Assembly: GCF_036387035.1 (NCBI RefSeq)
Contig: NZ_DASVUM010000268.1
Location: forward strand, 6,671 to 70,670
Direction: 5' to 3'
Length of the DNA: 64,000 bases
Origin: Pseudomonas sp.
GTDB lineage: Bacteria; Pseudomonadota; Gammaproteobacteria; Pseudomonadales; Pseudomonadaceae
The stretch's first letter is position 1. The number at the start of each line of letters is the position of its first letter. This document shows positions 59,729 to 63,544 of the stretch, one piece after another. The translations under genes and the position numbers were made by a program. The notes below the pieces were generated by a model, which saw only the letters and a list, made by a program, of their open reading frames with translations, had not been told where the DNA came from and did not search any database.

Positions 59729-59750
59729 CAGAATGCAAATCTTTCGCATT
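59729..59750. promoter_or_regulatory. Fur-box-like element upstream of icmP
   Basis: AATGC-AAATCTTTC-GCATT dyad; 12 of 19 positions match GATAATGATAATCATTATC. Confidence 0.6.
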
Positions 59751-59811
59751 ATGTCGCAGCTTTTTTGGCGCTCGCCACCGTTCACACCTCTTCTCGATGC
59801 AGGATTCCGTC

Positions 59812-61155
59812 ATGATTCGTATGCCCCTGGCAACCGCAAGTCTGCTCGCTGTCGCTATTGCTCTGGCCGGTTGTGATCAGGGCAAGGACAAGCCCGCCGC
59901 TGCTGCACCTGCCGCAGCCGCCGCTCCGACGCCAGCGCCGGCCCCCGCCGCTGCGCCTGCCCAGACCAGCGAAGCCGCCACCAAAGCGGTGGTCGCCAAC
60001 TACGCAAACATCGTATTTGCCGTGTTCAGCGACGCCGAATCCACTGCCAAAAACCTCAGCACGGCCGTCGACGCGTTCCTCGCCACCCCCAATGACCAAA
60101 CCCTCAAAGCGGCGCGTGCAGCATGGGTAGCGGCGCGCGTGCCGTACATGCAGAGCGAAGTCTTCCGCTTTGGCAACACCATCATCGACGACTGGGAAGG
60201 CCAGGTGAACGCATGGCCACTGGACGAAGGCCTGATCGATTACGTCGCCAAGGATTACCAGCACGCATTGGGCAATCCGGGTGCCACCGCCAACATCATC
60301 GCCAACACGTCGGTGCAGGTCGGCGAAGACAAAGTCGACGTCACCGAAATCACCCCTGAGAAGCTCGCCAGCCTGAACGAACTCGGCGGCTCGGAAGCGA
60401 ACGTGGCGACCGGTTATCACGCCATCGAATTCCTGCTCTGGGGCCAGGACCTGCATGGTACCGGTCCGGGCGCCGGCGAGCGTCCAGCCAGCGACTACAT
60501 CGAAGGCCAGGGCGGCACCGGCGGCCACAACGACCGCCGCCGCGCCTACCTCAAAGCGGCTACCGACCTGCTGGTCAGCGACCTCGAAGAGATGGTCAAC
60601 AACTGGAAACCCGGCGTCGCCGACAACTACCGCGCCACACTGGAAGCAGAATCTGCCGAGAGCGGGCTGCGCAAAATGCTCTTCGGCATGGGCAGCCTGT
60701 CGTTGGGCGAGTTGGCGGGCGAGCGCATGAAAGTCGCGCTGGAAGCCAATTCCAGCGAGGACGAGCACGACTGCTTCAGCGACAACACCCACAACTCGCA
60801 CTTCTATAACGGCTTGGGCATCCGCAACGTTTACCTGGGCGAATACACCCGTGTCGACGGCAGCAAAGTGACCGGCCCTAGCCTGTCCTCGCTGGTGGCC
60901 AAGGCTGATGCCGCGACCGACCAGACCGTGCGCGCCGACCTCGACGCGACGCAGGCAAAACTCCAGGTCATCGTCGACCACGCCAACAAGGGCGAGCATT
61001 TCGACCAACTGATCGCGGCGGGCAATACAGCGGGCAATCAGGTGGTGCGCGACGCCATCGCCGCACTGGTCAAACAGACTGGCGCCATCGAGCAAGCCGC
61101 CGGCAAGCTGGGCATTACCGACCTGAACCCGGACAACGCCGACCACGAGTTCTGA
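59812..61155 (+). CDS. icmP: Imelysin-family lipoprotein IcmP
   Basis: Lipobox LAGC, Ala/Pro linker, NAWPLDEG, GYHAIEF (GxHxxE), EDEHDCFSDNTH. Confidence 0.9.
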   Translation: MIRMPLATASLLAVAIALAGCDQGKDKPAAAAPAAAAAPTPAPAPAAAPAQTSEAATKAVVANYANIVFAVFSDAESTAKNLSTAVDAFLATPNDQTLKAARAAWVAARVPYMQSEVFRFGNTIIDDWEGQVNAWPLDEGLIDYVAKDYQHALGNPGATANIIANTSVQVGEDKVDVTEITPEKLASLNELGGSEANVATGYHAIEFLLWGQDLHGTGPGAGERPASDYIEGQGGTGGHNDRRRAYLKAATDLLVSDLEEMVNNWKPGVADNYRATLEAESAESGLRKMLFGMGSLSLGELAGERMKVALEANSSEDEHDCFSDNTHNSHFYNGLGIRNVYLGEYTRVDGSKVTGPSLSSLVAKADAATDQTVRADLDATQAKLQVIVDHANKGEHFDQLIAAGNTAGNQVVRDAIAALVKQTGAIEQAAGKLGITDLNPDNADHEF

Positions 61156-61237: not shown

Positions 61238-61270
61238 AATGCCGACCCGGCCACGGGCCGGCATTTTTTT
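61238..61270 (+). terminator. Intrinsic terminator after icmP
   Basis: AATGCCGACCCG-GCCA-CGGGCCGGCATTTTTTT. Confidence 0.8.
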
Positions 61271-61436
61271 CGTCAATCGAAGGCCCGACATCCCCGCCAA
61301 ACTGATCGTATCCGAGGAGCGGTCTGTAACCTTTGTAAGGCATTTCCTGTTCGCTCCTTGTCGGATTGAACACGCCTCCTCCGCCGCTGACTATGCCCAC
61401 TTCCTTGACCCCACCCTATCCAGGAGGAGACAGAAA

Positions 61437-61976
61437 GTGCCCAAGAGAAACAATAAAAGGCGCCGCGTCAGTAAGCTCAAAGCCAACGATTACGGTATCC
61501 ATCTGCTGGTCGGCATCAAGGGCCCGCGTGCCTGGAAGGTGACGATCTATCGCGACGGCAGAACCTTCAACAGACTGTTCTCCTTCTCCCGTTACGGCGG
61601 ACGGGACGCGGCACGGCAAGCCGCAGATGCGTGCCGTGACCAGTTGCTGCTGGCTCACCTGCCCAAGCTCAGCCGCGACATCCGTCAGCGCATCATCGCC
61701 ACCAACACCAGCGGTTATCCGGGGGTGCATTACCGCTGCTACACCGGCATTGCTTATTGGGTGGCACGCACCACTCTGCGCAATGGCAGCAGTGTCACCA
61801 AGTCGTTCAGGGTGGAGCATTACGGCTACGAACGGGCCAAGGAGCTGGCGATCCGTGAGCGCGAACGGCAACTTGACGGCATCGGCGACTACCGGTCATT
61901 CAAGGTGGTTGAGGGAGAACGGCGTCTGATGCAATTGCTCGTCGAAAATCCGGCGCTGCAGATCGCGGGAGCATGA
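61437..61976 (+). CDS. Tandem AP2-domain DNA-binding protein (179 aa)
   Basis: AGGAGG RBS and GTG start. Repeat 1: YGI..AWKVTIYR..FSFSRYGGRDAARQAADACRD. Repeat 2: NTSGYPGV..YWVART..KSFRVEHYGYERAKELAIRER. Confidence 0.78.
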   Translation: MPKRNNKRRRVSKLKANDYGIHLLVGIKGPRAWKVTIYRDGRTFNRLFSFSRYGGRDAARQAADACRDQLLLAHLPKLSRDIRQRIIATNTSGYPGVHYRCYTGIAYWVARTTLRNGSSVTKSFRVEHYGYERAKELAIRERERQLDGIGDYRSFKVVEGERRLMQLLVENPALQIAGA

Positions 61977-62034: not shown

Positions 62035-62059
62035 GCAAACGCTAATCCCTCTTATTCAT
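62035..62059. promoter_or_regulatory. Weak Fur-box-like element
   Basis: GCAAACGCTAATCCCTCTT, 11 of 19 match to the Fur consensus. Confidence 0.35.
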
Positions 62060-62116
62060 CAAAGCCGGGGCTGGTAAGCTTGCTCGCCCCGATTTCCTCG
62101 CCTTTTCAGGACCTGT

Positions 62117-63544
62117 ATGACTGCGCGGTTCCGTCAATCGTTTCCCCTGCTGATGGCACTCGCCGTCAGTGGGTGCGATGACGCCCCGCGTTTCACCGCC
62201 GCCGAGCCCGGCGAGTCACGGTCAGGCGGTGCGACGACCGTCAACAAAAGCGACCGCAATGCGTTTTCCCTGCCTTCGGCCAACCTGTCGCCTGCCCGGC
62301 GTCTGGACTTCAGCGTCGGCAACAGCTTCTTCCGTAACCCGTGGGTGATCGCCCCCTCCACGACCACCGCCCGCGACGGCCTGGGTCCGTTGTTCAATAC
62401 CAACGCCTGCCAGAACTGCCACATCAAGGACGGCCGGGGTCACCCACCCGAGCCGGGGGCAGACAATGCCGTTTCAATGCTGGTGCGGCTGTCGATTCCC
62501 GACGACCCGGCATTTGCCGAACACATCAAGCAGTTGGGCCTGACACCGGAGCCGGTGTACGGCAAACAACTCCAGGACATGGCCATTCCCGGCGTAACGC
62601 CCGAGGGCAAGGTGCGGGTCGACTACGATTCGATGACCGTGCATTTTCGCGACGGGACCCCGGTGCATTTGCGCCGCCCGACCCTGCAGATCACCCAGCC
62701 AGGTTATGGCCCGATGCACCCGCTGACCCGCGCATCCGCGCGCATCGCACCGCCGATGATTGGCCTGGGGCTTCTGGAAGCCATTCCTCAGGCGGCGATT
62801 CTGGCCAACGCCAACCCGGACGATGAACAAGGCACCGGCATCACCGGCAAGCCCAATTGGGTCTGGGACGACGTACAGCAGAAAACCGTGCTCGGCCGTT
62901 TCGGCTGGAAAGCCTCGCAGCCCGGCATCCAGCAGCAAAACGCCCACGCGCTCTCGGGCGACATGGGCCTGACCTCCAGCCTGATGCCGGTAGACGACTG
63001 CACGCCATCACAGACCGCATGCCTGGCCGCGCCCAACGGCGAAGGCCCTGACGGCGAGCCAGAAGTCAGCGACAACATCCTGCGCCTGATCACCTTCTAT
63101 ACCCGCAACCTCGGCGTGCCGGCACGCCGAGACGTGGCCGAGCCGCAAGTGCTGGCGGGCAAGAGTCTTTTCTTCAAGGCCGGCTGCCAGCAATGCCACA
63201 CGCCGCAATTCACGACCTCGGCCGATGCAGCCGAGCCTGAGCTGGCGAACCAGGTCATCCGCCCTTACACCGATCTGCTGCTGCACGACATGGGCGAAGG
63301 CCTGGCCGACAACCTCAGCGAGTTTCAGGCCAGCGGCCAGCAATGGCGAACGCCTCCGTTGTGGGGCATCGGCCTCACCGAAACCGTCAGTGGCCATACG
63401 CAGTTTCTGCACGACGGGCGTGCCCGCAACCTGATGGAGGCCGTGCTCTGGCATGGCGGTGAGGCGTTGCCGGCGCAACGTCAGGTGCTGGCCTTCGACG
63501 CGGAACAACGCGCGGCGCTGCTGGCGTTCCTGAATTCTCTCTAA
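62117..63544 (+). CDS. Di-heme oxidoreductase family lipoprotein (DHOR)
   Basis: Lipobox VSGC, two CxxCH (CQNCH, CQQCH), GRFGWKA, WRTPPLWGIG, LHDGRAR. Confidence 0.92.
   Translation: MTARFRQSFPLLMALAVSGCDDAPRFTAAEPGESRSGGATTVNKSDRNAFSLPSANLSPARRLDFSVGNSFFRNPWVIAPSTTTARDGLGPLFNTNACQNCHIKDGRGHPPEPGADNAVSMLVRLSIPDDPAFAEHIKQLGLTPEPVYGKQLQDMAIPGVTPEGKVRVDYDSMTVHFRDGTPVHLRRPTLQITQPGYGPMHPLTRASARIAPPMIGLGLLEAIPQAAILANANPDDEQGTGITGKPNWVWDDVQQKTVLGRFGWKASQPGIQQQNAHALSGDMGLTSSLMPVDDCTPSQTACLAAPNGEGPDGEPEVSDNILRLITFYTRNLGVPARRDVAEPQVLAGKSLFFKAGCQQCHTPQFTTSADAAEPELANQVIRPYTDLLLHDMGEGLADNLSEFQASGQQWRTPPLWGIGLTETVSGHTQFLHDGRARNLMEAVLWHGGEALPAQRQVLAFDAEQRAALLAFLNSL

Follow-up and report, generated by a model that had tools for sequence, protein, structure and literature searches.

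Plants and apicomplexan parasites rely on AP2 as their main transcription-factor fold; in bacteria it is known mostly within nucleases and integrases. In plant ERF proteins, in PfSIP2 and in integrase arm-binding domains, its three-strand sheet binds the DNA major groove. To our knowledge, nuclease-free bacterial AP2 proteins are predictions with few tested examples. Such proteins were predicted to be transcription factors by Iyer and Aravind in 2012, as cited in PMC4117751, and they share the AP2-only architecture of the protein described below; the citing passage in PMC4117751 does not connect them with toxin loci. CasPRs, phage repressors of cas genes that combine a CapR domain with AP2, are likewise nuclease-free prokaryotic AP2 proteins (bioRxiv 10.64898/2026.02.23.707548). 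CasPRs are shown to bind specific DNA and to control the transcription of conflict genes; they depend on the CapR zinc domain and are encoded within the anti-CRISPR loci of phages of Bacillota, whereas the protein considered here has AP2 units alone, is chromosomal and has no phage match.

We analyzed a window of 64,000 nucleotides from a Pseudomonas sp. contig (NZ_DASVUM010000268.1), in which a gene encoding two AP2 domains lies between icmP and a di-haem oxidoreductase gene (DHOR). Apicomplexan tandem AP2 proteins (PfSIP2, 6sy0; the Toxoplasma mitoribosomal AP2VIIb-2 / AP2IX-6, 9g6k, 9i05, 9hqv and 9fi8) likewise have two AP2 domains of a similar sequence flavor and no catalytic domain. The present protein differs from them in being bacterial, in its total length of 179 aa, in domain placement (rmsd 10-17 Å over both domains) and in sequence (15-24% identity). 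HNH-AP2 homing endonucleases and the AP2-like arm-binding domains of integrases have the same DNA-binding fold, but neither this protein nor its 149 best relatives has a nuclease or recombinase domain, and the gene is fixed, not mobile. The plant double-AP2 factor WRINKLED1 (7wq5) and the ERF GCC-box domain (2gcc) are alike in fold (VIA-align Z 4.8 and 4.6 with a first model), but distant in sequence and with a different linker.

A literature search that covered main texts and few subscription papers found nothing tying AP2 to vgrG or T6SS, to polymorphic toxins or to contact-dependent inhibition. Pairing AP2 domain-containing protein with Pseudomonas gave papers on plant genes, apart from the CasPR preprint. 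The tie of bacterial AP2-only proteins to polymorphic toxin loci is apparently unreported; the AP2-only kind itself had already been predicted.

Architecture and predicted fold of the twin-AP2 protein

The twin-AP2 gene occupies 61437..61976 on the forward strand, to which all features below also belong. It starts with GTG, follows a ribosome-binding site (AGGAGG, 61422..61427) that is conserved among orthologues, and encodes 179 aa with a pI of 10.6 (36 K+R vs 16 D+E). An initial annotation, made from the sequence, had described a very basic ORF with a strong ribosome-binding site and two AP2-like repeats but no catalytic domain, and these features stand. Pfam assigns PF00847 over its cut-off in two stretches (E=1.7e-10; 41.4 bits vs 33.3) and detects no HNH or integrase family in the protein, and structure prediction gives two AP2 units. 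PHROGs returned just two matches, both sub-threshold and to HNH families, over the AP2 part (E 0.15 and 0.29). No family was assigned by NCBIfam or by PADLOC; the latter was run on four proteins and matched none.

The AlphaFold model, built from a 32-sequence alignment (pLDDT 88.8), consists of a disordered basic tail, two three-strand-plus-helix units and C-terminal helices. The AP2 superfamily fold, a three-stranded sheet packed on one helix, is present twice. The tail (residues 1-16; 61437..61484; pLDDT 57-63) is NLS-like, with K-K/R-x-K/R in 21 of the 23 orthologues read, and is the least constrained part of the protein (dN/dS 0.47). AP2 unit 1 covers about residues 18-75 (61488..61661; dN/dS 0.056), with three strands and a helix in the model and a Pfam stretch. 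AP2 unit 2 covers about residues 89-149 (61701..61883), starts with NTSG-x-x-GV, is recognized by Pfam and in the model, and is the most constrained part (dN/dS 0.026). The modeled C-terminal helices (61908..61970) fall within the BLAST alignment with vgrG-adjacent proteins, which reaches residue 168-171. Two AP2 units and a short tail fill the whole model, with no other Pfam family and no CapR zinc domain. An AP2-only architecture without a catalytic domain is confirmed.

Foldseek gave five matches at E<0.001, all apicomplexan tandem AP2 proteins (Toxoplasma mitoribosomal proteins and PfSIP2), in agreement with the ApiAP2-like pattern first noticed in the sequence. The best of these are the rRNA-binding mitoribosomal AP2 proteins, and an earlier, poorer model gave the same set of structural matches. 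By analogy with plant ERF, PfSIP2 and integrase arm-binding domains, each AP2 unit would place its three-strand sheet in the DNA major groove. The pair would then read a bipartite DNA site, with the basic tail adding affinity. The predicted fold makes it likely that the protein is a sequence-specific DNA-binding regulator, and the stand-alone DNA-binding factor originally suggested is probable.

Distribution and selection

The gene is single-copy in its own genome (5.27 Mb, 88% complete). A sample of 301 Pseudomonas genomes contains 10 others with an orthologue (87-98% identity), 12 with a paralogue (40-47%) and one with a weak, broken match. The weak matches noted include G133, with a broken frame, and G851. 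The 11 orthologue-bearing genomes are exactly those with the 11 best DHOR scores, no other genome of the 301 has an orthologue, and the 288 remaining DHOR-positive genomes have the locus without the gene. Scanning species representatives, a set that overlaps with the 301-genome sample, gave 24 orthologues, in P. graminis, P. petrae, P. abietaniphila, P. bohemica and their relatives. All 24 sit between icmP and DHOR; paralogues at an unrelated site, a possibility raised in the initial annotation, are found downstream of gtrS in 11 genomes.

Over 25 loci, mean dN/dS is 0.065 for the AP2 gene, 0.069 for icmP and 0.079 for DHOR. Of the 23 orthologues read, 22 encode 179 aa and the other 190, and the gene tree shares several groups with the DHOR tree, both being poorly resolved. 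The gene is fixed in the P. graminis/abietaniphila group under purifying selection. Phage and plasmid searches with the protein returned nothing, with no tblastn match in 50,697 phage records, and the locus has no terminal repeats, flanking duplications or integrase. We exclude both a relic and an active selfish element, as the gene is fixed in its clade, has a dN/dS like that of its core neighbors and lacks terminal repeats. Two ideas in the initial annotation thereby fall away: membership of a small selfish element, given also a gene tree broadly like that of DHOR and the lack of HNH or integrase in the 149 best relatives, and truncation of a longer HNH-AP2 homologue, given the same 149 relatives without HNH and a dN/dS that is not neutral.

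The window's own genome carries an hrcV-type T3SS, a gene for an HrpL-like sigma factor and hrp boxes (contigs C240 and C109), found in 10 of the 11 clade genomes tested.

The locus and its promoter elements

The upstream flank is icmP (59812..61155; PF09375, E=1e-91), encoding an imelysin lipoprotein, and the downstream flank is DHOR (62117..63544; PF06537, E=6e-96). These two genes open the Fur-regulated operon type PA4370-PA4373 (PMC3143127). Between icmP and the AP2 gene lies an intrinsic terminator (61239..61270; hairpin 61247-61261 and T run), kept at orthologous loci. It is followed by a sigma-70-family-type promoter (TTGAAC, 17 bp, GACTAT; 61366..61394) that is conserved across 25 loci, with GATCAT as the -10-like hexamer in most orthologues; a strict consensus promoter scan did not pick it up. 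The proposal that the gene forms its own transcription unit behind the icmP terminator is borne out by this arrangement.

Three further elements precede the -35 hexamer. At 61334..61351, 32 bp before it, lies an upstream box of the TGTARG-N-TTCC type, a putative activator site. A conserved block 22 bp before this box (61312..61329), seen in the alignment of 25 loci, may be a second, weaker copy. Directly 5' of the -35 hexamer is GTCGGA (61360..61365), present in 22 of 24 distinct orthologue promoters and in none of eight island or nine paralogue promoters (described below), a candidate autoregulatory operator. GTCGGA is not enriched at T6SS leaders (2/14 vs about 1.6 expected).

DHOR has its own conserved promoter element and -10-like hexamer (62036..62080; weak Fur-like match, 11 of 19), which is present in empty and filled gaps alike and marks the downstream edge of the insertion site. 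A Fur-like match ahead of the AP2 gene scores 10 of 19, no higher than the control, in a weak test by which icmP itself reaches just 12. The iron connection implied by the initial annotation finds no backing here, there being no Fur-like site above control upstream of the gene and DHOR keeping its promoter element in gene-less genomes. The Fur-like site of icmP (12 of 19, 59729-59758) overlaps a sigma-70-type promoter upstream of that gene.

In a check for expression, five runs hold 5-7% of the words. Contigs from four runs (one a metatranscriptome) span the gene at ~90% identity and cross the icmP terminator at flat depth, so that these contigs may also derive from DNA.

The icmP-DHOR gap as an insertion hotspot

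We compared the locus with the 19 best-scoring, and thus nearest, genomes without the twin-AP2 gene. The gap is empty (195-281 bp) in seven of them and carries insertions in the other 12, so that the normal adjacency of the two genes assumed in the initial annotation is seen in the former and not in the latter. Seven gene-less genomes have islands of DUF4123, VasX and DUF6708 genes (adaptor, T6SS effector and immunity-type) in the gap, and in an eighth the island promoter survives along with a short remnant. Three genomes have an enzyme-like gene in the opposite orientation and one has a broken lectin-like gene; we take the occupants at L079 (G007), L077, L081 and L082 to be a broken lectin-like bacteriocin-type gene and an opposite-strand flavin-enzyme-like gene. 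The element upstream of DHOR is retained in all 19. The gap is an insertion hotspot.

The eight island promoters, including that of the remnant, have the same three elements as the AP2 gene promoter, with the box at the same 32-bp spacing in 8/8. A matrix built from these eight promoters alone ranks the site at 61334 first in the 5.27-Mb genome, at 34.9 bits vs 19.4 for the next, which indicates that the AP2 gene occupies the island's promoter. Judged by sequence homology, the gene appears to be driven by a homologue of the T6SS-island promoter of sister species. No toxin-island gene lies within 5 kb of the 24 orthologous loci, none of the seven sister-species islands contains an AP2 gene, and the intermediate state was not seen in this set; the step in which the gene was left behind thus rests on the promoter and the tree. 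Alternatively, the AP2 gene could have landed behind an island promoter that already existed.

A second fixed twin-AP2 group lies downstream of gtrS in 11 genomes (L016, L017, L019-L027) from two separate Pseudomonas lineages. These paralogues are 214-225 aa long, have a C-terminal extension of their own and are convergent with the glucose sensor kinase gene. Their promoters have a similar geometry, with box and 32-bp spacing in 11/11, but the matrix derived from them ranks site 61334 just 34th. An island-residue model was negative at the gtrS site, where no toxin island accompanies the paralogues and none was found in 23 gene-less genomes.

The upstream box across the genome

On an unbiased list of 14 hcp/vgrG leaders of the genome, a matrix of the box that combines both groups of AP2 promoters places 4/14 in its top 5%. 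Overall, 4-5/14 leaders have the box with two matrices, but 1/14 with an orthologue-only matrix. The vgrG genes of Stutzerimonas and G273, discussed below, are not preceded by the box. Since the box exists in genomes without the AP2 gene, it is an input to the gene and not its target. The box is widespread in Pseudomonas and, elsewhere in this genome, precedes hcp, vgrG, a T6SS core operon and many unrelated genes (C154:49098, C77:5114, C82:10735, C2, C180 and others). We take the box to resemble half of a GacA/BvgA-type site. It is not a GacA box proper, of which the genome has three perfect TGTAAG-N6-CTTACA palindromes elsewhere.

Relatives of the twin-AP2 protein at toxin loci

When 1.84 billion representatives were searched with a profile, 2,892 matched at E<0.001, 704 of them at E<1e-10. 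The best 149 relatives outside the protein's own clade are arrays of AP2 pairs with 2 to about 8 AP2 units, and none has an HNH or catalytic integrase family. A few longer ones have extra HTH- or RHH-like domains (weak matches). The 20 of the 149 that were looked up include Variovorax, Acidovorax, Massilia, Rhodocyclaceae, Sphingomonas and Stutzerimonas. A search for longer homologues, a weak test, found none. Viral scans gave weak single-domain matches and one prophage-borne four-domain relative.

The best BLAST matches outside the clade are Stutzerimonas-like proteins (42-48% over about 155 aa, C-terminal helix included), which do not have the basic N-terminal tail. At 4/4 of their loci, with different flanks, the next gene downstream is an orphan vgrG, behind which a LysM-domain protein is encoded. 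At one Pseudomonas locus, in G273, a 187-aa relative is encoded by the last gene of a vgrG-DUF4123-VasX-immunity-immunity operon. The Stutzerimonas-like and G273 proteins join the gtrS paralogues and the window clade in one branch (SH 96) of a FastTree tree in which half of the branches are unresolved. Members of a distant branch, carried by Rhizobiaceae plasmids, neighbor vgrG at 8/9 loci, picked from about 25 records and some closely related; six are head-to-head and two at the operon tail. Relatives of the betaproteobacterial type come after vgrG-Rhs and CdiA/CdiB loci. At one Methylobacter locus, no vgrG was found.

A metagenome scan gave 79 loci in 45 clusters, of which 10 have a toxin-locus marker on contigs that are mostly short; CdiB, with or without CdiA, accounts for six of these 10. 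Where at least 3 kb upstream was available, 6/16 protein clusters have a vgrG, Rhs or CdiA/CdiB marker, compared with 2.7% of random 16-kb windows in the window's own genome; we give no p-value for this excess because related loci do not count independently and a single genome supplied the control. Some marker queries were taken from the scored loci themselves, with families confirmed by Pfam. One counted cluster (L206) rests on a single putative Rhs match, and L205, with Pfam RHS repeats, was left out of the count. Among 13 more distant class-level relatives none has a marker nearby, and many metagenome members are orphans between housekeeping genes. Together, the promoter and the family context point to T6SS and contact-dependent toxin islands, a link that the initial annotation had missed.

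Proposed role and alternative explanations

We tentatively favor the explanation that the twin-AP2 protein is a DNA-binding regulator of T6SS effector genes that arrived with a toxin-immunity island later stripped of its toxins. The gene would have reached the icmP-DHOR gap as part of such an island, and the toxin genes would then have been lost. It would be switched on by the same activator as hcp/vgrG genes. Regulation of toxin-delivery genes would act in cis in the relatives and in trans here, on the T6SS loci of the genome (matches to 3 tssC, 7 vgrG and 9 hcp). Judging from genomic context, toxin-delivery genes may be among the targets of the protein. TssC is encoded in 25/26 gene-bearing genomes, a count made on gene-bearing genomes alone that says little, since T6SS is common in Pseudomonas. 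More speculatively, AP2-only arrays could be an unrecognized regulator family for polymorphic toxin loci (T6SS vgrG islands, Rhs and contact-dependent inhibition) in Alpha-, Beta- and Gammaproteobacteria, with the P. graminis-group copy domesticated after island loss and controlling T6SS in trans. If so, three unrelated toxin-delivery systems would share one type of regulator, and an island gene would be seen turning into a fixed chromosomal gene. Were the gene a mere hitch-hiker, it would still offer a clean test case of a bacterial AP2 factor. It is small, single-copy and strongly conserved in cultured species, with a defined promoter and a concrete class of targets.

Other explanations are weighed here in descending order of probability. 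Toxin-locus tails collect unrelated genes, and the protein may, though this is unlikely, be a sequence-specific transcription factor that travels as a mere passenger in toxin-island ends and other insertion hotspots and was co-opted in the clade for non-toxin targets. Such a history fits the uptake of unrelated genes at the icmP-DHOR site, the gtrS paralogues fixed without an island, the many orphan family members and the selection that is still strong though the island is gone. However, six Rhizobiaceae loci have the gene head-to-head with vgrG, and 4/4 Stutzerimonas-like loci, whose flanks differ, have it directly upstream; these are places for a regulator, not tail positions alone. Low-specificity DNA coating, either as a counter-silencer of AT-rich toxin-immunity islands or as a shield against nuclease toxins that is kept like an orphan immunity gene, is improbable. 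The very basic protein, the relatives with arrays of 2 to about 8 AP2 units and the tail position after immunity genes in the G273, vgrG-Rhs and CDI loci agree with it, but relatives also lie upstream of, or divergent from, vgrG, PADLOC matched 0 of 4 proteins, and the AP2 domains characterized to date read specific words (bioRxiv 10.64898/2026.02.23.707548). We consider it quite improbable that the protein binds RNA and acts after transcription, like the tandem ApiAP2 proteins of the Toxoplasma mitochondrial ribosome. These are its best matches in sequence and structure, but few other ApiAP2-type tandems have been solved, the match to the DNA-bound PfSIP2 tandem is almost as good, and relatives have HTH/RHH-like extras.

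Several relatives have integrase genes nearby, and the fold weakly resembles that of an integrase arm-binding domain (3jtz, E=0.16); both would suit a protein that assists island mobility by binding integrase arm-type sites, or what is left of an element of that sort. We regard this as very improbable for a fixed, vertically inherited gene with a dN/dS of 0.065, one copy per genome, and no integrase, terminal repeat or flanking duplication at the icmP-DHOR locus. It is still less probable that the protein acts as a secreted effector, imitating AP2/ERF factors inside plant nuclei, for all the NLS-like tail in 21/23 orthologues read and the hrcV-type T3SS in the own genome and 9/10 orthologue-bearing genomes. 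A hrp box precedes the gene in 0/25 promoters, yet the genome has hrp boxes at its T3SS loci; the N-terminus is 4% serine with only about 17 unfolded residues, at odds with general effector rules; the gene is intact in G148, where hrcV was not found; and the tail is the least constrained part (dN/dS 0.47) and lacking in vgrG-linked relatives. A local regulator of the icmP-DHOR iron-uptake genes would explain the position of all 24 orthologues, but we think it less probable again: the locus lacks the gene in the other 288 DHOR-positive genomes, the DHOR promoter element is identical with and without it, no relative was seen at another iron locus, and the Fur-like match equals the control at 10 of 19, a weak test. 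The chance that the gene is a decaying relic of an HNH-AP2 homing endonuclease is negligible, despite the sub-threshold PHROGs matches over the AP2 part, with 179 aa in 22/23 orthologues read, a dN/dS of 0.065, HNH in 0/149 best relatives and, from the weak search noted above, no longer homologue.

Further AP2 gene contexts

The AP2-pair proteins of Rhizobiaceae that are encoded divergently from vgrG (L124-L128, L241) have an extra conserved C-terminal region of ~150 aa that has no Pfam match. Three-domain Variovorax-like AP2 genes occur with cdiB at L162, L164/L171, L165/L167, L176, L177/L181 and L180. At L167 and L176 the AP2 gene lies directly after cdiA-immunity-lipoprotein-cdiB, presumably the Burkholderia-type gene order. 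On a Methylobacter plasmid (L240), a twin-AP2 gene sits between a helicase/cas6e block and an HNH-SMI1/KNR4 toxin-immunity-like pair. On a viral contig (L147), the gene for a four-domain AP2 protein adjoins the phage portal gene, in a moron-like position.
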